A stretch of 64,000 bases of DNA from Christensenellaceae bacterium (GTDB lineage: Bacteria > Bacillota > Clostridia > Christensenellales > UBA1242), in contig JAISKJ010000003.1 in NCBI GenBank assembly GCA_031260975.1, forward strand, positions 229,758 to 293,757. The letters are read 5' to 3'. The notes below the pieces were generated by a model. The model saw nothing but the letters and a program-made list of their open reading frames with translations. It ran no database searches and had not been told where the DNA came from. Each line of letters opens with the position of its first letter. Within the stretch, counting starts at the first letter, position 1. Shown piece after piece: positions 1 through 60,403 of this stretch. Both the position numbers and the translations under genes were made by a program.

Positions 1-3000
1 GTAACACTTTATATGACTTTGACAGACCTATCAATCGTGATACCGTAATTTATGCAGGCTTTGTACGTGAAGTTTATATAGCAGTTTTCTATTCTAACTT
101 TGTAGGCACACAGCCTCAGAGTCAGGAGTTTTTGCGTGACTTAAGGGCATATGACAGTTCTTTTCCGGCTGCTGTGACTACTCCAAGTGATCCAAGCGGA
201 CATTATGAATTTGTCTGCTGGGCAGACAGTCCGATTGTGGGGCCAAATACTCATACATACGAGTTAGGAGCTCCTGTCACAATGCCTATTGACGGCATAA
301 ATCTTTATGCAATTTGGCAGGGTGTGCATCAGACAGTTACATTTGCCTTTAGCGCAGACGCCTACAGTTATGGTCAGCCGCTTGGGCCAAGAGTAGATAC
401 CAGCGGAAGATATGGGCAGTCGTATACTGTTCCTAGCGACTTCGGAACCGTTGACCACAAAAATTTTGAAAAATATTTTGTGGGATTTTATAGGCAGGAT
501 ATAGCAACCGGCGTTGTTGACACAAGCACAATCTACAGAACCGGCAATACTATTAATCTTTTGGGTGATGTATTATTTGTTGAAGCGTGGGAAGCATCAA
601 CAAGTAGCGTAATATTCAGTATGGGTGATTATAACGGCGGCACACCGCCCGCTGCTAAAAATTATGTGGCAGGGCATATGTTTAACCTGCCGATTGCTGA
701 GAGACCGCATTATATATTAAGCGGCTGGTCAGACGGCAAGGGCAGTATATGGGCACCCGAAACGGGTTTTGTTATGCCCGAGAGCACAATGACACTGACA
801 GCAGTATGGTCAGAAATGACATATTTGGTGTCGTATGATCCCAATGCCTTAGTTCAGGGGGTTATGAATTCTACCTCTGTGCTTTATAATTCTATTATGT
901 ATGTTCCGAACAACGGATTTATCTACCCCGACGACAAATGCGAATTTAAGTATTGGGTAACCGAGGAAAACAAGGACCTTTCTTATGAAGATATAGATTT
1001 ATTAGGTCTCACCAAATATGTTGCAGGAAGCTATATGTCTAATATCAGCAGCAATATAACCCTTTATGCTATTTGGGCACCAAAGCCCAAGCCCATGGCG
1101 GTGGAGTATAAGCTGACCAACACAGGAGTTGCGGCGGCGAGTGAAGCCTATGTTCAAGGGCTGTTTGCAAACGATTACACCACAGAATACGGATATTATT
1201 ATACCATTCCAAGCTATGACGCAAGCTTGATTTTGCATGAATATAACGACAAGCTATTTGGCGGGTTTAAGATATTAAATGACTTGACAAACACAGCATA
1301 TACTTCGGGCCAGCAGATTTTAGTGCTTGATGACATTACGCTTGTGTTTAATTGGGTTGACACCGGAAACAACATTATATTTGACCTTGGCGGGGGATAC
1401 ATGACAAGTGTAAGTGTGCCAAGCTATGTTGAAGGCTTTACGTTTACGATGCCGCCGGTTCCGTCACCTGAACGAACCAACTTTGAATTTAGGGGCTGGG
1501 TTTTGCAGAGTTATCTTGATGAGGAGCACGGCGGTGTTGCCCCTGATTGGGATTTGATACCTGATACGTGGCAAACAGAAACTGTAAAGTTTGCAAGTCT
1601 TAGCGGGCTTCTGTTTGTAATGCCCGAGGGAGGTATAACTTTTGTTGCGGTCTGGAGGGCGGCAGCATATAGCATAGAATTCAGCAAGGGCCTTAACACA
1701 TATATAGAAGGCTCAATGTCTATGATATCCACAGTATTTGGTGCGTCATATGTTGTAACAAGTGATTATGATAGTGTAAATTCGGCTGTAGCGGGAAATC
1801 TTAAGGTGGGCTTTAGTTACTATGGTTATGAATTTATGGGTTGGTCGACAAGGGCAAACCAGACAAACCCAGAGTATAGCATAGGCAGCACTATAATTAT
1901 GGACGCCGGCATAGGTAACAGGCATCTGATGCTTTATCCGTGCTTTAAGAGCATTAAAATCGTTATTAAGTATGACGGCAACGGTGGAACACATGAGGGT
2001 ATGAACATTTTTGAAAACCAAAATTATTATTTTGGGCAGTTCATAACACTTAATCAGGCTTTTGAAAAACAGAATTATGAGTTTGTGGGCTGGAGCGTTG
2101 TTTCTGACGCAACACTCACAGGGTATAGTAACGGTGATGTCAGAACTGTTGCTCCCGCAGGGTCAACTATACTTGTTGACAGTCTGTTTATAGAGCAGCT
2201 GGATGCTTTGAGTATATCGCACTTTGCAAACGGTGATATAACAATTACACTTTATGCAATTTGGAGAGGAGCGCAGACGAATATTGTGTTTAGCAGTAAC
2301 GGCGGCTTTGGCACAATGACTGCTCAGAGTGTTAGATATGGCGACACAGGTGTTGTGCTCACAACAAATACTTTTGTGAGAAACGGCTATGAATTTATGG
2401 GCTGGAGCACCAGCTCAAACGGGAGCGTGGAGTATGCTGATGCTGATTTAATTGATATTGCCGGCCCCATAACTCTTTATGCAAAATGGCGCGGTGTGGC
2501 GGTAACTCTGACAATCTATCTTAATGACCATGACTACACCTATTCGCCTGACTTTATAACAATAACACATGCCGGAGGGAATATCCTGCGTTTTGGCGAC
2601 ACATACAATTTTGAATCGATAGGCAATTTTGTGACTGTTAACCCCAATAAGGAGTTTTTTAGGTATAACACTCTGGCAACCGGCACCGGAGCCTCATATG
2701 ACCCGGGCAGTGCTAACTCTCAAGACAGAAGTATTGTGCTTGGAAGCACAAATAACTTCTATGTAATATGGAAGGGAAAATCTAAAAATGTAACTTATGA
2801 CCTGAGTGATGTAAGGCTTGACAACGGAAATACAATGTCAAACAAGACCTCGACAGGCGAATATAATCAGGCCTTTAGACTGACGCACATAAACGTAGAT
2901 TATCAAGTTTACAGGCATTATAGTCCTCTGGGAGACCCATTGAACCACTATATAGTAGCAGGAGACATTGTGGCAGGTTTATGGATAAGCAACATCGGCA

Positions 3001-6000
3001 GCACAAGTTATACTTTTGTTGATGGTGTTACTACAATATATCCGTTGGGTTCAAATATTTTGATAACCGACAACACTGTTCTTAAAATATATTGGACAAC
3101 CGACATGGCTCAGGCGGCAACTGTCACATTTGACCTGAATAACGACACTGATATTTCGACGGCACCGGGCAGTATAAATCCGATGGCCGGCGTGATAAAT
3201 GCTCAGATAACCCTGCCTGTTGGACCCACGCGAAACAACTACATTTTTGACGGCTGGAACACTAAAGCTGACGGCACAGGCATAGGCTATGACGCGGGCG
3301 ACCCTTATACATTAATCAGTGCGGCCTCTACGCTTTATGCACAGTGGACGCCTAAGAATAAGTTTATAAGATATAATGCAAACGGCGGAACGTTCAGCGG
3401 GCTTGCTCTTAACGGCGGCGACTATCTGTCAAGCGGAATTGCAGTCAAAGCTACCACATTGCTTGCTACATTCACTGCAGTGCAGCTTAGCAAGACCGAT
3501 TATGAGCTTGTGGGCTTTAGTTTATCGGCTCAGGGCAATGGCGGCGGACAGCATGTGTATGCTCCGGGTGCGGCCTTCTATATGGCCGAGAGTCTGTTTA
3601 GCAACAGTGGTGCCGAAGTGACAGAAGTTACGCTTTATGCAATCTGGAGAGGTCAGGCGGTCACTATAAACTTCTTGGGTCAGGGCGGCACAATTTCAAG
3701 CAGTTCACCCACTTATAGCATAACAGCAAGAGTGGGCGACACAGTATCGCTGTATAACGACTTTAGCAGAACGGGTTACACCTTTAAATACTTTACTCAT
3801 ACTTCTTCTGACAGTGGAACAAAATATTGCGAAGTCAGCACTCCGTTGTCATTCAGTATTAATATAACAACGGCGGGCAGTATAACGCTTTATGCTCAGT
3901 GGCAGGCGCAGACAATGACCGTTACCATCAAAAAAGATACCACAGGCACCGTAAGTTATGAAATAGAAGTTCCGTATGGTGGCACATGGATTATGTTTGA
4001 CCCATCAAGCACGACAGACGGTTGGAGCTTCCCGACAGGTGACGCTTTGTGGACTACTCCCGACAACGGAACTTTCTTGGGCTGGAAACAGGGCAGCACC
4101 GAATATCCGTGGAATGTTGCTTACCCGGGTGAAATAATTGTTACAGACTTCGTTGAATTTGAGGCTATGTGGAGCGTTACTCCGCCTATTACAATAATAT
4201 TTGACAGAGGAACAGGACTTATAAACGATGCAGGAGTTCTTACGCAAGTATCAATTTCGGCGGCACTCGGCGGCGGATTTACCATACCGGGAAATCTTAT
4301 AACCTACAGCGGCGGTACAGCACAGTTCTCTAAGGCAGGCTTTAGTTTTGACGGCTGGACATATATCACTAATTCCACAGAGTTTTATGTGGGCAGCAAT
4401 GTTATGCTTAACAGTCTATATTTTAACACCTCTGACCTTAGCGCTTATACAATTACATTAACAGCAAGATTTGTTTCAAACACATATATTATAAATTATA
4501 TCGCCGAAAACGGCACATTTGAGGGAGGATACCCAACTATTGTGGTGGTTGACCCCAATGTTATGCCGGCAAATTATGAGGTATATGGCGTCAACACAGT
4601 AACTCATCTTTCGGGAAATTATATTCTTGCAGGCTGGGATTTAATGGTTGCGGGAATATTTGACGGGGTTATAGATTATACACCGCTTCAGATAATTTCT
4701 ACTCCGACAGGCAATATTACGCTCAGAGCGATTTGGGCGCCCAAAACCAAGACCGTTGATATTGTCAGCGGTGAGGCTACCTTTGTGCCTCTGACATCGT
4801 TGTCGTCAGGCGAAAAACTTACAATTGAGGCTGCTATCGCAACAGCTCTTGGCGGCATTGGCGGATTAGGCGGACTTTATGCGTTGACAGCACCCAACAT
4901 TTACTATCCTGAGGTGTCAAACAGCACAATAGTAAGTATAGGTGTGTCTTATGGAAGTAAAATTAATATGTACGGCGAATTTGGAGCCTTTTGGCTTATT
5001 GTCGTTGTTAATGCAAGTGGTAATGTGACTGACATATATGTGGTTGAGATTGATGTGCCCATGGTAGGACTTACCCCCCAAACAGCAAAATTCTTCTCAA
5101 ACGATAACGGAATTACTAAGCATGCAATCGGCGGCGTAAACGCCGGAGGAGCCGCGGTTGTGATTGCGGGCTATGTTGAATATACTATCTTGTGGCAGGG
5201 CGAGCAGCGCAACGTTGTGTTTGAAGGCAACGGCGGAACTTTAGGCAGTCATACGACGGTTTATACTTCAGTGCACTATGTGGGAGAGACTATAAACCTT
5301 GCCAACATATTCGTTAAAGACAACAGCACCTTTGACAAGTGGCTTTATAGCAACGATGCCGAAAGCGGCAGCGAAACTTATATTGCAGTTGGCGGAGCCT
5401 TTACTATTGACACCGGCAGTTACCTTCACAATGGCACTGATATAGTGTTTGTCGCTCAGTGGACGCCTAACAGCGTATATATAAACTATCAGGGCAACGG
5501 CGGTAGCATACTTGTTCAAATTGCAGGTCAAGGAACCCCTTATGACACAACTGACGATGAATACAGTAATCAGACATTGGTTCAGGATGCTGCACCGCTT
5601 GGAGAATATGTATATTATGAGGTTATTTCAAATCCGTTTATTTATTCAAGCTTCCAATTCCTCTATTGGAGCACAAGCAGTGCTTCTGACGCCACAAATG
5701 CCGGCACAAAATATTATCCGGGAAATTTTAGTAGCGGCCGTATAGAAAGCATCTTGGCATCCCTTACGCTTTATGCCATTTGGGGCTTGCCGCAATATAC
5801 ACTGACATTTAATAACAACAACGGCGGAGTAGTAGTTCAGGTTCAGGCAAGGGGCCCTGTAGTGGTTCCGGCACCGGGTGCACAGTTTAATGGTTCGCTG
5901 ATAGATATTTCTAAGCCATATTGCAAGCTGTTGTATTGGAACACAATGCCAAACGGTCTGGGCATTATATACCATCCGGGCGACACCTTAGAAGTTAACG

Positions 6001-6503
6001 ACAATATCACATTGTATGCAATTTGGGCTGACATTCCGGTTTATGTATACTTTGACGCAAATGGCGGAACGGGTAGCGTTTCATATGACCCTGTTGCACG
6101 TTTGGTTGGTGCTTCATATATTACTCCGCAGTGGTTTATTGAATTTACACCGCCTATGGGCGCAACCTTTATGGGTTGGAGCTTTGACCAATGGGCCACC
6201 GAGTTTGAAGCCGTGGCAGCAGGTCAGCCAATTATTATTGACGGCAGTTTTGCGGTGCTTGTGGGCGGCAATCCCGATTATTATGAAATTACATTGTTTG
6301 CAGTTTATGACGGGATATTTGCGGCTCCAAAAGTGTTTAACCAAATCAACACTCCGTTTACATACATGGGTTGGTACCCTAAAACCTTTGTGGGCACGGC
6401 GCTTAATACTACGCTTAATGGTGAGCAGGGTGGTCTTGGTCAATCAATTACAAGTGTTACATATAACATAGGTCTTCGTCCTGCTTTGAGGATAGCTATA
6501 TAA
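1..6503 (+). CDS. Giant repeat protein made of Listeria-Bacteroides (InlB B-type, Flg_new-like) repeats; 5' end lies outside the window
   Basis: The frame of ORF 132..6503 stays open back to base 3 (TLYDFDRPINRDTVIYAGF...), so the gene is truncated by the window edge. About 22 diverged ~70-90 aa units follow the pattern V.F..NGG...........G(Y/F)(E/T)F.GW........Y..G......(I/L)TLYA(I/K/Q)W. One example is NIVFSSNGGFGTMTAQSVRYGDTGVVLTTNTFVRNGYEFMGWSTSSNGSVEYADADLIDIAGPITLYAKW. No C-terminal LPXTG or TM segment is visible. Confidence 0.8.
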   Translation, partial: NTLYDFDRPINRDTVIYAGFVREVYIAVFYSNFVGTQPQSQEFLRDLRAYDSSFPAAVTTPSDPSGHYEFVCWADSPIVGPNTHTYELGAPVTMPIDGINLYAIWQGVHQTVTFAFSADAYSYGQPLGPRVDTSGRYGQSYTVPSDFGTVDHKNFEKYFVGFYRQDIATGVVDTSTIYRTGNTINLLGDVLFVEAWEASTSSVIFSMGDYNGGTPPAAKNYVAGHMFNLPIAERPHYILSGWSDGKGSIWAPETGFVMPESTMTLTAVWSEMTYLVSYDPNALVQGVMNSTSVLYNSIMYVPNNGFIYPDDKCEFKYWVTEENKDLSYEDIDLLGLTKYVAGSYMSNISSNITLYAIWAPKPKPMAVEYKLTNTGVAAASEAYVQGLFANDYTTEYGYYYTIPSYDASLILHEYNDKLFGGFKILNDLTNTAYTSGQQILVLDDITLVFNWVDTGNNIIFDLGGGYMTSVSVPSYVEGFTFTMPPVPSPERTNFEFRGWVLQSYLDEEHGGVAPDWDLIPDTWQTETVKFASLSGLLFVMPEGGITFVAVWRAAAYSIEFSKGLNTYIEGSMSMISTVFGASYVVTSDYDSVNSAVAGNLKVGFSYYGYEFMGWSTRANQTNPEYSIGSTIIMDAGIGNRHLMLYPCFKSIKIVIKYDGNGGTHEGMNIFENQNYYFGQFITLNQAFEKQNYEFVGWSVVSDATLTGYSNGDVRTVAPAGSTILVDSLFIEQLDALSISHFANGDITITLYAIWRGAQTNIVFSSNGGFGTMTAQSVRYGDTGVVLTTNTFVRNGYEFMGWSTSSNGSVEYADADLIDIAGPITLYAKWRGVAVTLTIYLNDHDYTYSPDFITITHAGGNILRFGDTYNFESIGNFVTVNPNKEFFRYNTLATGTGASYDPGSANSQDRSIVLGSTNNFYVIWKGKSKNVTYDLSDVRLDNGNTMSNKTSTGEYNQAFRLTHINVDYQVYRHYSPLGDPLNHYIVAGDIVAGLWISNIGSTSYTFVDGVTTIYPLGSNILITDNTVLKIYWTTDMAQAATVTFDLNNDTDISTAPGSINPMAGVINAQITLPVGPTRNNYIFDGWNTKADGTGIGYDAGDPYTLISAASTLYAQWTPKNKFIRYNANGGTFSGLALNGGDYLSSGIAVKATTLLATFTAVQLSKTDYELVGFSLSAQGNGGGQHVYAPGAAFYMAESLFSNSGAEVTEVTLYAIWRGQAVTINFLGQGGTISSSSPTYSITARVGDTVSLYNDFSRTGYTFKYFTHTSSDSGTKYCEVSTPLSFSINITTAGSITLYAQWQAQTMTVTIKKDTTGTVSYEIEVPYGGTWIMFDPSSTTDGWSFPTGDALWTTPDNGTFLGWKQGSTEYPWNVAYPGEIIVTDFVEFEAMWSVTPPITIIFDRGTGLINDAGVLTQVSISAALGGGFTIPGNLITYSGGTAQFSKAGFSFDGWTYITNSTEFYVGSNVMLNSLYFNTSDLSAYTITLTARFVSNTYIINYIAENGTFEGGYPTIVVVDPNVMPANYEVYGVNTVTHLSGNYILAGWDLMVAGIFDGVIDYTPLQIISTPTGNITLRAIWAPKTKTVDIVSGEATFVPLTSLSSGEKLTIEAAIATALGGIGGLGGLYALTAPNIYYPEVSNSTIVSIGVSYGSKINMYGEFGAFWLIVVVNASGNVTDIYVVEIDVPMVGLTPQTAKFFSNDNGITKHAIGGVNAGGAAVVIAGYVEYTILWQGEQRNVVFEGNGGTLGSHTTVYTSVHYVGETINLANIFVKDNSTFDKWLYSNDAESGSETYIAVGGAFTIDTGSYLHNGTDIVFVAQWTPNSVYINYQGNGGSILVQIAGQGTPYDTTDDEYSNQTLVQDAAPLGEYVYYEVISNPFIYSSFQFLYWSTSSASDATNAGTKYYPGNFSSGRIESILASLTLYAIWGLPQYTLTFNNNNGGVVVQVQARGPVVVPAPGAQFNGSLIDISKPYCKLLYWNTMPNGLGIIYHPGDTLEVNDNITLYAIWADIPVYVYFDANGGTGSVSYDPVARLVGASYITPQWFIEFTPPMGATFMGWSFDQWATEFEAVAAGQPIIIDGSFAVLVGGNPDYYEITLFAVYDGIFAAPKVFNQINTPFTYMGWYPKTFVGTALNTTLNGEQGGLGQSITSVTYNIGLRPALRIAI

Positions 6504-6680: not shown

Positions 6681-8081
6681 ATGTCACTTTTGAAAATGCT
6701 GAAAAAAAATTATAAGGAAAATGTTTTGGCTATGCATATGCCGGGTCATAAAAGAAAGCCCATGGGAGGGCTTCCTACCGATATTGACATAACCGAAATT
6801 GAGGGTTTTGGCAATCTTATGCACGTTGACAACATTTTGGGGGACTTGCAGGCTGAGGCTGCCGAGGTTTTTGGGGCGGAGCGGGCTTTCTTTGTTGTCA
6901 ACGGCAGCACGGGGGCAGTGCTTTCGTCGATTGTGGGGCTCACTCAGTATGGCGATGAGGTGATTATGACGCGCAACTGCCATAAGTCGGTTTATAGCGC
7001 GATTGAAATAAACGGACTTAAACCCACATATATTGCGCCAAATCTTGACGAAAACGGCATCGCCCAAAGTATTACTGTGGGACAAATTGAAGAAGCTATA
7101 AAAAAGGCACCTAAGGCCACCATTGTAATAGTTACTTGCCCCACATTTGAAGGTGTGGTGAGTGACATTAAAAGTATTGCTGAGGTTATTCACAAAAGCG
7201 GCAAAAAACTTATTGTAGACAGCGCACACGGGGCGCACTTTGGGTTTTGGGGTATGCCTGAGCACGCCAACAAATGCGGTGCCGATGTTGTAATTTGTAG
7301 CCTTCACAAGACTTTGCCAGCAATGACTTCAACATCCCTTTTGTTTTGTAAAAAAGAATTGGGCGAAATTATTGCCAAGTATGTGACTATGTTTCAGACA
7401 ACCAGCCCGTCGTATGTGCTTATGGCCAGCATAGTTGAATGTGTAAATTTGTTAAAGACAGACGGCAGCAGAATATTTAAAGAATATGTAGTCAACCTTA
7501 AAGAATTTAGTGAAGGCACAAAACAGTTAAAGCATTTGAAGGTGCTTTGTAATGGATTTGATTCAAAACAAAATCATAAAGACTATTTTGATTATGACTT
7601 TGGCAAAATTGTAATACTGACCACCGGCACCAATATTACGGGGCCGGCACTTATGTCAAGCTTACGTAAACAAAAAATAGAGGCGGAAATGAGTTATAAC
7701 AAATATGTTATTGCCATGACCAGCATTTTTGACACTAAAGCAGACTTGAAAAGACTGCTTGATGCTCTCATTTTGATAGACAAAACGCTGTCGCAGAAAG
7801 CTGACAAATATGTAGTTTCTTCGGTATATATTCCCGAATTTGTTTGCAGGTCAAGTGACTTAAAGCCTTTGAAGGCTGTTAAAACCGAAATAGGGCAGAG
7901 TTTAGGTAAGGTTAGTGCTGAATATATATGGGTTTATCCGCCGGGAATTCCGATTGTTGTTCCGGGCGAGAAAATAGACAAAAAGATTTTGGATATTTTA
8001 AAAGTGCTCCAACAAAACGGACTGAAAATCAACAGCACAGGCGGGCAGATGCCCGGGTTTGTTTTTGTGGCTGATAAATAA
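6681..8081 (+). CDS. PLP-dependent Orn/Lys/Arg decarboxylase family protein (SpeA/YaaO-like)
   Basis: N-terminal MHMPGHKRK motif and the PLP-lysine context SLHKTLPAMTSTS. Length is 466 aa. SD AAAGGAG lies 8 nt upstream of the ATG. Confidence 0.85.
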   Translation: MSLLKMLKKNYKENVLAMHMPGHKRKPMGGLPTDIDITEIEGFGNLMHVDNILGDLQAEAAEVFGAERAFFVVNGSTGAVLSSIVGLTQYGDEVIMTRNCHKSVYSAIEINGLKPTYIAPNLDENGIAQSITVGQIEEAIKKAPKATIVIVTCPTFEGVVSDIKSIAEVIHKSGKKLIVDSAHGAHFGFWGMPEHANKCGADVVICSLHKTLPAMTSTSLLFCKKELGEIIAKYVTMFQTTSPSYVLMASIVECVNLLKTDGSRIFKEYVVNLKEFSEGTKQLKHLKVLCNGFDSKQNHKDYFDYDFGKIVILTTGTNITGPALMSSLRKQKIEAEMSYNKYVIAMTSIFDTKADLKRLLDALILIDKTLSQKADKYVVSSVYIPEFVCRSSDLKPLKAVKTEIGQSLGKVSAEYIWVYPPGIPIVVPGEKIDKKILDILKVLQQNGLKINSTGGQMPGFVFVADK

Positions 8082-8114
8082 CTTTTCTGTCGGAAAAAAT
8101 ATTATTTTTAGGTG

Positions 8115-8143
8115 TTGACAACGGTTAGATCTTTGTATATAAT
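8115..8143 (+). promoter_or_regulatory. Consensus sigma-A type promoter for the 8181 ORF
   Basis: TTGACA (8115-8120), 17-nt spacer, TATAAT (8138-8143). Both hexamers are perfect. Confidence 0.6.
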
Positions 8144-8180
8144 AAAAATATAATTTATGTATGGGGGGGGGTAAAGAATT

Positions 8181-8540
8181 ATGGAAAATTTAGGAGTATT
8201 CGGTGAACTTTTCTATTTGGAGGGAGCGGCTTTAGAAAACTCTCAGCCGGTTAAAAGATGTGTAGAGTGTATAAAGTGGCGAGAAGCTTTTAGATGTAAA
8301 TATTTTAAAAAAGTTGAAGACAATGACAATATCTTTACTGATATTATGAAGTGTAGAGCTCTGGATGAACGGGTTCATTATGATTATCCTCTTGAATATG
8401 GTGATTGGAATGTCAGAGCGTTACCAAATTGCCCGCTTATAAAACAACGTGGTGTATTTGTGGAGAGCACTGCCACTGCCGAAACATTTCCGGATTACCT
8501 ACTGATGAAAGATGAGGCTGTAACATTTGAAGGCGGTTAA
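8181..8540 (+). CDS. Hypothetical Cys-containing protein (119 aa); no family recognised
   Basis: The ORF is preceded by a perfect promoter and a G9 tract at the SD position. It has five Cys including CVEC. I recognise no motif. Confidence 0.5.
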   Translation: MENLGVFGELFYLEGAALENSQPVKRCVECIKWREAFRCKYFKKVEDNDNIFTDIMKCRALDERVHYDYPLEYGDWNVRALPNCPLIKQRGVFVESTATAETFPDYLLMKDEAVTFEGG

Positions 8541-8605
8541 TAACAAAAAAAGGTTATGTTATCAAACTATTTTTAACGCAGTAACAGATTTTATGTTAGG
8601 AATAG

Positions 8606-8634
8606 TTGACAGCAGGGCAAAAAAATGCTAAAGT
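8606..8634 (+). promoter_or_regulatory. Putative promoter of scfA-scfB
   Basis: TTGACA (8606-8611), 17-nt spacer, extended -10 TGcTAAAGT (8626-8634). It lies inside the 5' part of the track ORF 8625..8825, which argues for the internal ATG at 8664. Confidence 0.45.
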
Positions 8635-8663
8635 TACGTATACTTATAAGGGCGGTAGATATT

Positions 8664-8825
8664 ATGAAACACATAAAGACTTTGGTCAAAGGGAATTTAA
8701 ATAAAAAGTACGGCGGTTGCGGAGAATGCGCTACCGGATGTCAATCGGCATGCAAGACTTCTAACCCTATGATATATCAAAGATGTGAAGCAAAGGCCAG
8801 AGGCCAGCGTATTAACAGAGATTAA
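8664..8825 (+). CDS. scfA: SCIFF-family ranthipeptide precursor (divergent, five Cys, 53 aa)
   Basis: MKHIKTLVKGNLNKKYGGCGECATGCQSACKTSNPMIYQRCEAKARGQRINRD. It has the SCIFF hallmark N-terminus MKHIKTL and the CGEC...C.SACKTS core, and sits immediately upstream of a radical SAM/SPASM maturase. The start is taken at the internal ATG 8664 rather than 8625. Confidence 0.85.
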   Translation: MKHIKTLVKGNLNKKYGGCGECATGCQSACKTSNPMIYQRCEAKARGQRINRD

Positions 8826-8844
8826 TAAATCAATTTAACAATTT

Positions 8845-8866
8845 TGTCGGCTGAGCCGGCATTTTT
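8845..8866 (+). terminator. Hairpin plus T5 directly after scfA (attenuator or leaky terminator)
   Basis: TGTCGGC-tga-GCCGGCA (7 bp, one G-U) followed by TTTTT at 8862-8866. Confidence 0.5.
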
Positions 8867-8892
8867 GTTGGGGCTGGAGCGGGTATTATGGG

Positions 8893-8981
8893 TGCGGTTT
8901 TGCGCGCCGCGATAGCGCGGCGCCAGCGCAGGCACTCTTTGTGCCTGCGTTGCAAAAACAAAGTTTTTGCGCAAAACCGCA
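8893..8981 (+). other. GC-rich multi-hairpin (cloverleaf-like) element between scfA and scfB
   Basis: A 13-bp perfect outer stem TGCGGTTTTGCGC / GCGCAAAACCGCA encloses three hairpins: GCGCCGCG-atag-CGCGGCGC, CGCAGGCAC-tcttt-GTGCCTGCG and GCAAAAAC-aaa-GTTTTTGC. Confidence 0.5.
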
Positions 8982-9017
8982 TCACTTTTGGTCCGGCAAC
9001 CACTAGGGAGAAAAGAA

Positions 9018-10370
9018 ATGATACATGAATATAAACTAAACGGCAAAAATATTGTGATAGACTGCGGCAGCGGGAGTATCCATTGTATGGATGATTTGGC
9101 GTTTGACATAACCACTGAATATGAAAGAGCTGACAGAAAGAAGCTTTTAGAAAAGATACAGAAACTGTACCCGAAAGTTAGTGAAAAAGATATACTTAAT
9201 GCCATAAGTGAAATTGATGAGCTTAAAAGCCGGGACCTTCTTTTTGTACCTGACCCCCTGTGCAACGGCTGTATGGACTTGACAAATATGAAAAAGGATA
9301 TCAAATCTTTATGTTTGCATGTTTCACATACTTGTAACCTTAATTGCAGTTATTGTTTTGCCGCAGGTGGAAAATATCACGGAGCGGATGCCCTTATGAG
9401 TTTTGACACAGCCAAGGCAGCGATAGATTTTTTGATAAAAAACAGTGGCAGCAAAAAGCTTTTGGATGTTGACTTTTTCGGCGGCGAGCCGCTTATAAAT
9501 TTGGGAGTTGTAAAAGACACCATAAAATATGCCAGAACTCTTGAGAAAAAATATAATAAGGAATTTAGGTTTACTATCACCACAAACGGTATGCTCATTA
9601 ATGACGATTTCATAGATTTTTGCAATAAGGAAATCTATACGCTTGTGCTCAGTCTTGACGGTAGGAAGACAGTCCATGACCGTTTCAGAAGGACACTTGG
9701 GGACACCGGCAGTTATGATATTGTGGTGTCAAAATTTAAAAAGCTGGTGGAAAAGAGAGGCGGCAAGGGATATTATATAAGAGGTACATTCACACATAGC
9801 AACACAGATTTTGCAAGTGATATTTTGCATATGTTTGATTTGGGCTTTAATGAAATCAGTATGGAACCTGTGGTGAGCTCCCCAAAAACACCGTATGCTT
9901 TGACCGACGAGGACTTGCCCAAGATAAAGCAGCAATATGAAATTTTGGCAAATAAAATTTTGGAACTGAAACAGCAGAATAAAATTCTTAATTTTTATCA
10001 TTTAAACCTAAATCTGAATGACGGTCCGTGTATTTATAAGAGATTGTCCGGCTGCGGTGCGGGCAGCGAATATCTGGCAGTTACGCCGCAGGGGGAAATT
10101 TATCCTTGCCATCAGTTTGTAAGTGACCCCGAATATTGTCTTGGAAATGTATTTGACGGAATTAAAGACGCCCAAAAACAGCAACAGTTTAAGGGCTGCA
10201 ATATCAATGAGCGAACCGAGTGTAAGACGTGTTGGGCAAAGTTTTATTGTGGAGGCGGGTGTTTTGCAAATTCTTATCATGCCAAAGGAGATGTAAGTGC
10301 CGTTCATAGTTATAGCTGTGAGATATTCAAAAAGCGGCTGGAGTGTGCCATTATGATGCAGTGTGAATAA
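9018..10370 (+). CDS. scfB: SCIFF radical SAM/SPASM maturase (thioether-forming)
   Basis: CX3CX2C cluster CNLNCSYC. C-terminal SPASM cysteines are present (CIYKRLSGCGAG..., CKTCWAKFYCGGGC). It is adjacent to the SCIFF precursor. The start is set at ATG 9018 (SD AGGGAGAAAAG) rather than the track TTG at 8967. Confidence 0.9.
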   Translation: MIHEYKLNGKNIVIDCGSGSIHCMDDLAFDITTEYERADRKKLLEKIQKLYPKVSEKDILNAISEIDELKSRDLLFVPDPLCNGCMDLTNMKKDIKSLCLHVSHTCNLNCSYCFAAGGKYHGADALMSFDTAKAAIDFLIKNSGSKKLLDVDFFGGEPLINLGVVKDTIKYARTLEKKYNKEFRFTITTNGMLINDDFIDFCNKEIYTLVLSLDGRKTVHDRFRRTLGDTGSYDIVVSKFKKLVEKRGGKGYYIRGTFTHSNTDFASDILHMFDLGFNEISMEPVVSSPKTPYALTDEDLPKIKQQYEILANKILELKQQNKILNFYHLNLNLNDGPCIYKRLSGCGAGSEYLAVTPQGEIYPCHQFVSDPEYCLGNVFDGIKDAQKQQQFKGCNINERTECKTCWAKFYCGGGCFANSYHAKGDVSAVHSYSCEIFKKRLECAIMMQCE

Positions 10371-10422
10371 TATGCATTAATATATGCACATATAATAATC
10401 TGAGCGGAATTGTTGTGTTAAA

Positions 10423-10459
10423 AGCACGGAGGGATATAAAATATCCTCTGTGCTTTTTG
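10423..10459 (+). terminator. Intrinsic terminator after scfB
   Basis: AGCACGGAGGGATAT-aaa-ATATCCTCTGTGCT followed by TTTTT. Confidence 0.7.
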
Positions 10460-10460
10460 G

Positions 10461-10570
10461 TTGACAAACACGGCGAATTGTGATATATTTGGTCTATCAC
10501 CGCATAAGAAAGGTTTTAAAGACTTGGGTCACCTTTGCTTAGCGAGTCCGTAAAATAGGAGGAAGAGAAA
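10461..10570 (+). promoter_or_regulatory. rplU promoter plus ~80-nt structured leader (possible L21 leader)
   Basis: TTGACA (10461-10466), 17-nt spacer, TATATT (10484-10489). The leader contains AAAGGT...ACCTTT pairing. An L21 autoregulatory leader is known upstream of rplU in Firmicutes, but I cannot verify the consensus by eye. Confidence 0.35.
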
Positions 10571-10876
10571 ATGTTTGCAATAATTCAGACCGGAGGCAAG
10601 CAGTATAAAGTTGAAGTAGGCCAGAGTATTGATATCGAAAAGCTTGAATGTCAGGTTGGCGACAAGCTCAAGTTTGATGTGCTTTTGATTAGCGACGGCG
10701 ACAAGATCAGAACCGGCACACCCACACTCAAGGATGCAGTATGCGAAGCTGAAGTTGTGGCTCAGGGCAAGGCTGACAAGATAATTGTTTATAAGTATAA
10801 AGCCAAAAAGAACGAACGCAAAAAACAGGGACACCGTCAGCCCTTTACTCGCGTGAAAATTGTTAGTATAAAATAA
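10571..10876 (+). CDS. rplU: 50S ribosomal protein L21
   Basis: MFAIIQTGGKQYKV... is a typical L21 N-terminus. 101 aa, strong SD. Confidence 0.95.
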   Translation: MFAIIQTGGKQYKVEVGQSIDIEKLECQVGDKLKFDVLLISDGDKIRTGTPTLKDAVCEAEVVAQGKADKIIVYKYKAKKNERKKQGHRQPFTRVKIVSIK

Positions 10877-10901
10877 GCGAAAGTCTCAGCGAGGCAAAGA
10901 T

Positions 10902-11225
10902 ATGACTAAGATAAAAATAACAAAAAAAGACGGTCACATAATATTTTTGGAGTGTGACGGTCACACAGGTTATGGCGTAGAAGGCGAGGACATAGTTTGC
11001 AGTGCTCTTTCAAGCATTGTGCAGACAGCAGTACTTGGTATTGTAGGAGTTGCTGGTATCAACGCCACACTAAAACGTAAGGAAGGCTTTTTGAGCCTTA
11101 AAATCCCTTTTGATATAACCCCAGAACAAAAGCATGATGCTGATATAATTTTAAATACCATGCTTTGCGGAGTTCAGGATTTATACGAAGGATATTCAGA
11201 TTTTATAGAATTGGAGGTGAAATGA
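10902..11225 (+). CDS. prp: Ribosomal-processing cysteine protease Prp (YsxB-like)
   Basis: DGHTGYG...DIVCSALS motif. Positioned between rplU and rpmA as in Firmicutes. Confidence 0.85.
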
Positions 11226-11515: not shown

Positions 11516-11596
11516 TAGAGGTAGCAGTTGTGTCCGCTGTGTAGTCATGTATCTTTGTATACACACCCTACACATCGTCCACAACTGCTACCTCTA
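11516..11596 (+). other. Long imperfect hairpin downstream of rpmA (terminator-like but no T-run)
   Basis: A 17-bp perfect stem TAGAGGTAGCAGTTGTG / CACAACTGCTACCTCTA, a 5x5 internal loop, a 7-bp stem TGTGTAG/CTACACA, then a 5-bp apical stem. Confidence 0.45.
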
Positions 11597-11726
11597 TTAT
11601 ATGGCAATTATATCGTCATTTTTTCTTTTAACAAGTATTCATTAATGAATATCTTGATATGATTTGAGGCTTTTAGCCTCTTTTTTAATTCCGTGGGAAT
11701 TTCTGGAGTATAGCTAGAGATTTTTC

Positions 11727-58796: not shown

Positions 58797-60275
58797 ATGA
58801 AGTCATATAATGTATATGAAGATATAGCAAAACGGACAAACGGCGATATTTATGTGGGTGTAGTAGGACCTGTCAGGTGCGGTAAGTCCACATTTATTTC
58901 AAAGTTTGTAAATACATTGGTTTTGCCAAACATAAAGGATGAATTCAGCAAAACAAGAGCAATTGATGAATTGCCGCAGAGTGCTGACGGAAAAGCAATC
59001 ATGACCACTCAGCCCAGATTTGTGCCCAACGAGGCGGTGGAGATAAGAGTAAAAGACAGTGTAGACCTAAAAGTTCGCCTGGTGGACTGCGTAGGTTATG
59101 TTGTGGCGGGAGCCACAGGACATACTGACGGCAGCAAACCAAGACTTGTCAAAACTCCGTGGAGTGATACGCCTATGCCTTTTGAACAGGCGGCAGAGAT
59201 TGGCACCAAAAAAGTTATCACTGAGCACAGCACAATAGCGGTGGCTGTTACCTGTGACGGAAGTTTCACTGACATTGAGAGGCAGAGTTATATTCAGGCA
59301 GAAGAAAGGATAGTGAAAGAGCTTAAAGCCACTAAAAAACCATTTGTGCTTGTTTTGAATACCGTAAAACCCCAGCATCCCGATACGCTTAATCTTTTGG
59401 ATACACTTAAAGCTAAGTATGAAGTACCCGTTCTGGCAATGGATATAGCCAACCTGAACACTGAAAACATAGATGAGGTTTTTGAAGGTATTTTGGGTGA
59501 GTTTCCACTGACATCTCTTCAGGTCAAAATGCCGCAGTGGATGCAGGCGCTTCCGTTTGATGATGAGATAATAAAAGAGGTGGTGCTTGAAGCTAAAAAT
59601 CTGATTGGGAACGTTGGCAAAATTGGTGAAATTGATACTGCTAGGGTAGCGTTTGAGAGCAGCGGATCATTTGAACCTCTCAGCATATCACAAATCAGGA
59701 TGGGTGAAGGAGTTGTGAGCATTGAGGTTGTACCCAAGCCCGACTTGTTTTATAAGGTGCTTTCTAAACAGTGCGGACAGGAAATTTTGAGCGACTTCCA
59801 TCTGGTGAGTTTCTTAAAAAAGCTTTCGCACGCAAAGGTTGAGTATGACAAAATAAAGGACGCACTTTTGCAGGTGGAGGAACATGGCTATGGAGTGGTC
59901 AGCCCCAGACTTGACGAAATGAAGCTTGAGGAGCCTGAGATTGTGAAGCAGGGCTCAAGATATGGGGTTAGGCTTAAAGCTTCGGCGCCTAGCTTGCATA
60001 TGATGAAGGTAGATGTTGAAACGGAGATAAGTCCGATTGTAGGCACTGAGCAACAGAGCGAGGATATAGTGCGTTTTTTGCTAAAAGAATTTGAAAGCGA
60101 CCCTAAAGGGTTGTGGGAAACAAATATGTTTGGAAAAAGCTTACACACTCTCGTGAACGAAGGACTTAATAACAAGCTTGTTCAGATGCCGGTCGAGGCA
60201 CAGAAAAAGATGCGCAGGACACTTGGACGCATCGTAAACGAAGGTAAAGGCGGAATTATTTGTATATTGTTATAA
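58797..60275 (+). CDS. spoIVA: Stage IV sporulation protein A (coat basement-layer ATPase)
   Basis: MKSYNVYEDIAKRTNGDIYVGVVGPVRCGKSTFISKF, 492 aa, ends GGIICILL. Confidence 0.95.
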   Translation: MKSYNVYEDIAKRTNGDIYVGVVGPVRCGKSTFISKFVNTLVLPNIKDEFSKTRAIDELPQSADGKAIMTTQPRFVPNEAVEIRVKDSVDLKVRLVDCVGYVVAGATGHTDGSKPRLVKTPWSDTPMPFEQAAEIGTKKVITEHSTIAVAVTCDGSFTDIERQSYIQAEERIVKELKATKKPFVLVLNTVKPQHPDTLNLLDTLKAKYEVPVLAMDIANLNTENIDEVFEGILGEFPLTSLQVKMPQWMQALPFDDEIIKEVVLEAKNLIGNVGKIGEIDTARVAFESSGSFEPLSISQIRMGEGVVSIEVVPKPDLFYKVLSKQCGQEILSDFHLVSFLKKLSHAKVEYDKIKDALLQVEEHGYGVVSPRLDEMKLEEPEIVKQGSRYGVRLKASAPSLHMMKVDVETEISPIVGTEQQSEDIVRFLLKEFESDPKGLWETNMFGKSLHTLVNEGLNNKLVQMPVEAQKKMRRTLGRIVNEGKGGIICILL

Positions 60276-60280
60276 CAAAA

Positions 60281-60308
60281 ACGGGGAAGGAGCTTCCTCG
60301 TTTTTTTT
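60281..60308 (+). terminator. Intrinsic terminator after spoIVA
   Basis: ACGGGGAAG-gag-CTTCCTCGT (one G-U) followed by a T8 run. Confidence 0.65.
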
Positions 60309-60313
60309 GACGG

Positions 60314-60403
60314 GCGGCCTTACTGCGCACTCTGTGAGTGCGCCAGAGCGCCGAATGGCGCTCCGCCTCAAAACCGTGCCACGGTTTTGAGGCATAAGGC
60401 CGC
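60314..60403 (+). other. GC-rich four-way-junction-like element
   Basis: A 9-bp outer stem GCGGCCTTA / TAAGGCCGC encloses GCGCACTC-tgt-GAGTGCGC, GAGCGCC-gaat-GGCGCTC and a 12-bp GCCTCAAAACCG-tgcca-CGGTTTTGAGGC. It is followed by agCTTTTTc. Confidence 0.5.

Follow-up and report, generated by a model that had tools for sequence, protein, structure and literature searches.

We describe a two-gene ranthipeptide locus in a 64,000-nucleotide stretch of contig JAISKJ010000003.1 from a Christensenellaceae bacterium (hereafter the window, with coordinates counted from its first letter). The locus comprises scfA, which encodes a five-cysteine precursor peptide of the SCIFF family, and scfB, which encodes its radical S-adenosylmethionine (SAM)/SPASM maturase. 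We propose, with a probability of roughly 0.7, that the two genes form a working operon whose precursor belongs to a rare and lineage-restricted five-cysteine subfamily. As judged by sequence comparison, this subfamily is conserved and paired with a canonical maturase; it is an unusual part of the SCIFF family, neither broken nor a new system. Canonical positions (C32, T34, C36, T37, N40 and C43) are numbered as in SCIFF/CteA, and residues of the window peptide in its own 53-residue numbering.

8664..8825, + strand: scfA; leader from M1 to about G18, core C19–E42, where NPMIY replaces C(T/G)V(G/A)N; basic tail A43–D53
9018..10370, + strand: scfB; radical SAM/SPASM SCIFF maturase, 450 aa

The open reading frame (ORF) 8664–8825 on the + strand translates to MKHIKTLVKGNLNKKYGGCGECATGCQSACKTSNPMIYQRCEAKARGQRINRD (53 aa) and passes two family models, TIGR03973 (53.1 bits against a cutoff of 50, E 2e-14) and PF13165 (54.3 bits against 27), in agreement with a preliminary description of the locus, which had named it a SCIFF precursor and quoted the same translation. 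An identical peptide is held by NCBI from a Christensenellaceae metagenome-assembled genome (MAG), annotated as "six-cysteine ranthipeptide SCIFF". Compared with column counts of the family, the sequence contains the MKHIKT(L/I) leader and the whole of the invariant C24...C28-Q-S-A-C32-K-T34-S, and the Gly18–Ser33 block, the most invariant part of the SCIFF family, is unbroken. Against a hidden Markov model (HMM) built from 39 canonical SCIFF peptides, the only gap is one of two residues in the leader, and the core aligns ungapped, with C30 at C32, T32 at T34, N34 at C36, P35 at T37 and C41 at C43. The register that the preliminary description had drawn by hand, with Asn at the fifth cysteine and Pro35 at a threonine acceptor, is thereby upheld.

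The peptide contains five cysteines (C19, C22, C26, C30 and C41), with Asn at the fifth position, and does not match the six-cysteine pattern C-x2-C-x3-C-x3-C-x3-C-x6-C within about 45 residues. The segment from C36 to N40 is replaced as a whole, C(G/T)V(A/G)N becoming NP(M/V)IY, and two further canonical positions are substituted, Q25 by Ala and S27 by Gly. The replaced segment and the lost fifth cysteine are the genuine oddities of the peptide. The basic tail, which had also been considered distinctive, is not: in a set of 262 distinct SCIFF peptides, used for column counts together with a second set of 149 cluster representatives, 122 have tails of at least nine residues after C43-E44, and within the variant clade the tail is basic but diverges in sequence between members.

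The scfA gene lies directly upstream of scfB on the same strand, with the scfB start 192 nt downstream, and this layout recurs at three other loci (L004, L005 and L006). The pairing with a maturase, also part of the preliminary description, is confirmed by a score of 652.1 bits on TIGR03974 (cutoff 425) and by an end-to-end alignment of ScfB residues 1–448 to CteB (PDB 5WGG; 486 bits), and on the "not_ScfB" orphan model NF040492 the protein scores 510.9 bits, below the cutoff of 855. ScfB carries CNLNCSYC and CKTCWAKFYCGGGC. Its cluster motifs align to those of CteB (CNLNCSYC, GPC, GCGAG, PCHQF, CKTCW, YCGGGC and CEIFKKRLEC), that is, the CxxxCxxC motif and a SPASM domain for two auxiliary clusters, and all of them are identical in the closest ScfB, P0166 (78% identity). 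Also identical in both proteins are the six residues named as lining the catalytic cavity of CteB (PMC10288494): the Phe after CxxxCxxC, the second Phe of DFFGGEP, the first Thr of TTNG, the Ser of VLSxDG and the His-Gln of PCHQF. Nothing in these comparisons suggests new chemistry in ScfB. Residues 1–100 align to the N-terminus of CteB by sequence alignment alone, and PF05402 (PqqD/RiPP recognition element, RRE) is among the several families found in 1 of the 120 ScfB relatives listed.

To gauge the rarity of the variant, we searched a profile of variant peptides exhaustively with HMMER against 1.84 billion cluster representatives. Among 1085 SCIFF matches the variant forms one 50%-identity cluster at 136.6 bits, and the next-best match scores 79.9 bits. 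Word-indexed searches of 5.8 billion proteins retrieved three variant members, and a fourth, MKHIKTLVKGNLNKMQGGCGECATGCQSACKTSNPVIYQRCEAKTRQDAKTRN, comes from the contig that encodes P0166. A scan with ScfB of genome contigs from species representatives, which do not include the source MAG, returned only two distant loci (56% and 47% identity), and a degenerate DNA pattern for NP[MV]IYQ[RK]CEA found no match in metagenome contigs. All four variant lineages keep KTSNP(M/V)IYQ(R/K)CEAK; the questions raised earlier, of how rare the Cys-to-Asn and Thr-to-Pro changes are and whether close relatives share them, are thus answered by a single cluster present in four lineages.

Pairwise ratios of nonsynonymous to synonymous change (pN/pS) among the four variant peptides are 0.08–0.12, with 50–86% of synonymous sites different, and variant scfA is therefore under purifying selection, maintained rather than decaying. 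Variant-clade loci available for comparison with the window are L003, L004 and L005, the contig of L004 reaching no further than the first codons of scfB. L005 shares full synteny with the window, encoding in order a giant Flg_new repeat protein, an Orn/Lys/Arg-type decarboxylase, a small Cys protein, scfA, scfB, rplU-prp-rpmA, mreB and minD. In the family at large C36 is present in 251 of the 262 peptides, and outside evident frameshifts it is lost in P0293 (C36F), P0018 (C36S), P0071 (Asn) and the variant clade (Asn). Cys36 is accordingly dispensable in at least one lineage.

Published work places the thioether of SCIFF peptides at two positions. As summarized in two reviews (PMC8326336, PMC8172795), in vitro assays on Tte1186a and CteA gave a Cys32–Thr37 link (Bruender 2016; Grove 2017), and co-expression of CteA with CteB in E. 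coli gave a C-gamma thioether between Cys32 and Thr34 (Hudson 2019). Whether further cysteines are cross-linked is left open (PMC8326336). The preliminary description held that the published cross-link cannot form in the window peptide. This stands for the in vitro Cys32–Thr37 link, whose acceptor position is Pro35 here, but not for the Cys32–Thr34 link found in cells: C30-K31-T32, the equivalent of C32-K-T34, is intact, so that a link of this type can form in the variant.

Thr34 is kept in 260 of the 262 distinct peptides, and both exceptions look frameshifted; position 37 is occupied by Thr in 209, Gly in 44 and Pro in 4. The cluster representatives give a similar picture, with Thr34 in 148 of 149 and position 37 as Thr in 107, Gly in 37 and Pro in 2, and Gly is found at position 37 in 17–25% of SCIFFs. 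The nearest maturase relatives outside the variant clade (L001, L007, L008, L009 and L010; 56–59% ScfB identity) are all paired with KTSCGVANQ peptides, and because this holds for five out of five, Thr37 was most likely already absent in the ancestor of the variant clade. Its absence is ordinary across a large part of the SCIFF family, and the loss of the threonine acceptor, put forward earlier as the informative feature of the peptide, loses that standing. Since Thr34 is nearly invariant, position 37 is Gly in about one fifth of the family and Pro here, and ScfB is canonical, the Cys32–Thr34 link is favoured, and the family-wide statistics favour Thr34 over Thr37 as the physiological acceptor.

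Candidate expression signals around the two genes are as follows:

8606..8634, + strand: promoter-like site of scfA; TTGACA, 17 nt, TG-extended TAAAGT
8845..8871, + strand: intrinsic-terminator-like hairpin directly after scfA; 7 bp (5 GC) followed by a T-run
9006..9010, + strand: Shine-Dalgarno sequence GGGAG of scfB

The promoter-like site, a candidate from a consensus scan (10 of 12 matches plus the TG), begins with its -35 box at window coordinate 8606, and the same -35 box, spacing and -10 box lie upstream of scfA in L003, L004 and L005. A Shine-Dalgarno-like AAGGGCGG precedes scfA at 8648–8655 and is conserved in relatives. We place the scfB start at ATG 9018 (MIHEYK), 7 nt downstream of GGGAG, and not at TTG 8967, which opens the reading frame; GGGAG or GGAG, as read from the sequence, also precedes the ATG in L004 and L005. 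The hairpin after scfA, found by a terminator scan, recurs in every related locus, with its T-run at the same place in L003, L004, L005 and L007.

Based on these observations, we propose the following course of events. Transcription of scfA would start from its own promoter, and partial termination at a leaky hairpin (8845–8871) would leave less scfB than scfA mRNA. Precursor in excess over enzyme is the usual arrangement for ribosomally made peptides that are modified after translation (RiPPs), and a terminator after scfA would fit it. The MKHIKTL leader would be bound by an N-terminal RRE-like domain of ScfB, whose radical SAM cluster and two SPASM clusters would serve to take a hydrogen from a threonine side chain, and the enzyme would then join that threonine carbon to a cysteine sulfur. 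The most likely link is from Cys30 to the C-gamma of Thr32, the equivalent of the CteA Cys32–Thr34 link mapped in cells. Remodelling is confined to the loop between the fourth and the last cysteine, with one cysteine lost and the mapped cross-link untouched.

Several points weigh against this proposal. The margin of the scfA peptide on TIGR03973 is narrow, at 3 bits. The discrepancy between Thr34 and Thr37, known here through the two reviews, is called unresolved there, and the cross-link chemistry assigned to the window pair is carried over from homologues. With the normally invariant C36 and N40 replaced, the mature peptide must differ from canonical SCIFFs in its fold, or in whatever further cross-links depend on C36. 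Moreover, Cys32 itself is missing in the rare forms P0018, P0071 and P0092, so that the C32–T34 link may not be universal.

Among the alternatives for the peptide, the strongest, though still improbable, is that the remodelled segment alters the cross-link pattern and yields a structurally new ranthipeptide; ScfB might, for example, connect C41 or C30 with a residue of NPMIYQ, or C22 with T24, instead of or besides forming the canonical thioether. In its favour, the core has five adjacent residues replaced, the invariant C36 and N40 among them, and the replacements are strictly conserved; the reviews leave cross-linking of other cysteines open, and C-x-[E/T/S/T] is retained at C19, C22, C26 and C30 as read from the sequence. 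However, the active-site-lining residues of ScfB are those of CteB, with no hint of a new specificity, and the canonical C-K-T site is unbroken. Far less likely is a reading that follows the two independent in vitro studies and takes Thr37 as the acceptor used physiologically, with the peptide a poor substrate or none and ScfB kept for another role or substrate. Peptides with Gly37, at 17–25% of SCIFF clusters, are all still paired with ScfB, the five nearest relatives included, and a universal Thr37 acceptor is implausible since it would not be lost so often. Both genes are, in addition, constrained and adjacent in the variant clade, and a second SCIFF ORF was sought in the 64 kb window and none was found. 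Several SCIFF-like database entries without C36 (P0095, P0114, P0150, P0363 and P0371) are evidently frameshifted, which could suggest that scfA is likewise a decaying pseudogene or a product of sequencing or assembly error. We consider this the least credible explanation, given that the same variant core is present in four independent assemblies, the frame stays open as far as C41-E42, and conservation extends to the promoter, the Shine-Dalgarno motif and the terminator; with near-saturated synonymous divergence, a pN/pS of about 0.1 effectively refutes it. We therefore retain the operon with a five-cysteine precursor as the best account of the locus.

Between the scfA terminator and scfB lies a structured element, and a second of like design is found elsewhere in the window:

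8891..8983, + strand: four-way-junction element E1; 93 nt, GC-rich, between the scfA terminator and scfB
60314–60403: second four-way-junction element E2; outer stem of 9 bp, hairpins of 8, 7 and 13 bp, GC-rich, z-score -8.3

E1 is predicted to fold into a 13-bp outer stem that encloses three hairpins (8, 11 and 8 bp) and leaves a single junction base unpaired (minimum free energy z-score -8.6). No other 100-nt stretch of the window is as stable (-61 kcal/mol, where the mean is -19.5 with a standard deviation of 5.8). It accounts for the extra length of the scfA–scfB spacer, which is 192 nt in the window and 176 nt in L005, against 63–94 nt in L001, L002, L004, L007, L008 and L010. The L005 orthologue folds alike (z -8.4), and a comparison of the two shows 5 of 40 pairs changed on both sides, four in hairpin 1 and one in hairpin 3, and two pairs changed from G-U to G-C or A-U, the G-U pairs fitting the + strand only. 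The one pair left open in L005 is the outermost of hairpin 2, and none of the three loops is identical. E1 is absent from L004, in the same peptide clade, and from six canonical loci. E2 directly follows a terminator hairpin (60277–60308) downstream of a 492-aa gene (58797–60275) that looks like spoIVA by its sequence alone. A scan of both strands of the window for this architecture returned E1 and E2 only; the two are alike in size and design with little sequence in common, and homology between them is not convincing.

Other identities considered for these elements were rejected or returned nothing. Rfam gave no match to E1 at E ≤ 1 over positions 8000–11000, and the whole window, searched at gathering score, gave none for the junction elements. 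No tRNA-like reading of the junction is supported by ARAGORN, which detects nothing. Neither element matched plasmids by BLAST, E1 did not match phages, and a pattern for the four-way-junction 3' part found nothing in metagenome contigs. Neither ORF that overlaps E1 (46 aa on the + strand, 57 aa on the - strand) was accepted as coding, since the + ORF is not kept in L005 and the stems change in a compensatory, not a codon-wise, manner.

In our reading, E1 would be a later insertion, common to two of the four lineages and one of at least two such elements beside terminators in the genome, that most likely acts as a sense-strand RNA, either as a stabiliser or as a protein-binding site. That an orthologous site retains it with compensated stems inclines us towards selection on structure. 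Counting against a role as RNA is that the comparison comprises two orthologous sequences only. A serious, if less favoured, competitor is a selfish or neutral palindromic repeat, similar to repetitive extragenic palindromes and bacterial interspersed mosaic elements (REP/BIME) or to miniature inverted-repeat transposable elements (MITE), that sits as DNA beside terminators without a role in scfA–scfB expression, its paired changes arising from hairpin-templated repair. Two copies of the same architecture and different sequence within 64 kb, both just after terminators of unrelated genes, would suit a repeat, as would a GC content of 0.59–0.67 in a genome of 41% GC and the absence of E1 from L004. 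A covariance model of E1, however, yields no further copy in the window or in L001–L007, there are no target-site duplications and no terminal inverted repeats beyond the outer stem, and E1 is kept at its orthologous site at 78% ScfB identity with loops that vary freely and stems that are compensated. The two G-U pairs, moreover, suit the sense strand only. A bolder joint reading, in which the NP(M/V)IY clade has a non-canonical cross-link topology and the terminator-adjacent junctions (8891–8983 and 60314–60403) represent a kind of structured sense-strand RNA not described before, tuning read-through or stability and here setting the precursor-to-maturase ratio, appears to us decidedly unlikely.

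Among the genes adjoining the operon, one is found at this position in the variant clade only:

8181..8540, + strand: small Cys-containing protein, 119 aa, upstream of scfA; no Pfam or NCBIfam match

This protein and its weakly similar counterparts (23–39% identity; L005 5378–5569, L004 455–661 and L003 2–118) are 63–119 aa long, fast-evolving and share a CxxC...C...C arrangement. Where the contig extends far enough, as in L005, the gene separates the decarboxylase gene from scfA; in L003 and L004 it precedes scfA, and L010 lacks it. We regard it as a candidate member of the scfA–scfB system. A perfect TTGACA-17-TATAAT is found ahead of it at 8115–8143. A pyridoxal phosphate enzyme of the Orn/Lys/Arg decarboxylase family (PF01276) adjoins scfA–scfB in the window (6681–8081) and in L005 (3851–5305), L007 (1773–3194), L009 (1–1085) and L010 (1–1212); in these distantly related lineages it is upstream in four and downstream in one. 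Further upstream, positions 132–6503 encode a 2123-aa protein of many Listeria-Bacteroides repeats (Flg_new, PF09479), with a 2197-aa counterpart at the same place in L005. Downstream of the operon, positions 10488–10557 resemble the ribosomal protein L21 leader (RF00559), although their 26.7 bits fall short of the gathering score of 36 (E 0.02); placed immediately before rplU and behind a strong promoter-like site (10461–10489), this is plausibly a true, divergent member. A long, near-perfect AT-rich hairpin at 11516–11597 (17-bp perfect core, z -12.3), followed by a T-run between rpmA and an mreB-like gene, is probably the terminator of the rplU-prp-rpmA operon.

Other members of the family also depart from the standard form. 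P0071, a database peptide (MKHIKTLNKPKFKESVKKGGCGECQATCQSYQKTSNGLPHQKCEKEQSDT), is a four-cysteine SCIFF-like form without Cys32, the reported donor, and without Cys36, in which Thr34 is kept; it is the only case of Asn at position 36 outside the variant clade. At L009 (1134–1415), a Qingrenia yutianensis-type locus, two full SCIFF units of leader and core are arranged head to tail in one 93-aa ORF upstream of a single ScfB, an arrangement also seen in P0017 and P0018, and in the P0018 tandem both units have Ser at Cys32 and Cys36. Given the rare forms without Cys32, the SCIFF family is less uniform than its name implies.

SCIFF systems are among the most widespread RiPP systems in Clostridia, and their mature structure is disputed with respect both to the acceptor (Thr34 or Thr37) and to the number of links (one or several). 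Natural variation bears on the first of these disputes, although most of the weight comes from the large Gly37 subfamily and not from the window locus, which is itself a modest curiosity; the variant pair would make a compact test substrate. The role of SCIFF peptides had been described at the outset as unknown, which needs softening in view of a proposed role in quorum sensing (Chen 2020, as cited in PMC8326336). A separate and minor lead, on RNA or DNA structure between genes, comes from the four-way-junction elements of this uncultured Christensenellaceae-like lineage.

Compared with known systems, the junction elements resemble, by description and not by model, the REP/BIME type of bacterial palindromic element: both are short, GC-rich, intergenic and highly structured, lie just downstream of genes and terminators, are present more than once per genome, and combine low sequence similarity with high structural similarity. 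They differ in forming a closed four-way junction, with three perfect hairpins in an outer stem of 9–13 bp instead of single or paired hairpins, and in that only two copies occur in 64 kb, one of them at an orthologous site with compensatory changes. PapA/PapB (freyrasin) and QhpC/QhpD likewise use radical SAM/SPASM enzymes to make the non-alpha thioethers of the ranthipeptide class. PapB is the third-best NCBIfam match of the window ScfB (292 bits against a cutoff of 340; QhpD 281 against 453), and the Cys-x3-Asp or Cys-Asp/Glu motifs of the PapA and QhpC precursors are absent from the window peptide.

The nearest maturases, at 56–59% identity, are those of the Gly37-type SCIFFs (KTSCG[IV]ANQ; L001 and L007–L010, from a Lachnospiraceae MAG, Qingrenia yutianensis and Ruminococcus sp.), which likewise lack Thr37 and several of which share the decarboxylase–scfA–scfB neighbourhood. 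In contrast to the window locus, they have all six cysteines, N40 and short single-hairpin spacers, and no small Cys protein upstream. CteA/CteB (thermocellin, Clostridium thermocellum; PDB 5WGG/5WHY) and Tte1186a/Tte1186 have the same two-gene layout, MKHIKTL leader and GGCGEC-x3-CQSACKTS core. Unlike CteA and Tte1186a, the window peptide has Asn for the fifth cysteine, P-(M/V)-I-Y for (T/G)-(V/I)-(G/A)-N at 37–40, Ala for Q25 and Gly for S27, a leader shorter by two residues and an 11-residue basic tail, and unlike canonical loci the window has a 93-nt structured insertion in the spacer (192 against 63–94 nt). What it has in common with CteA/CteB is a maturase that aligns over its full length, with identical cluster cysteines and six identical active-site-lining residues, and a precursor that retains the Cys-Lys-Thr site mapped in cells.

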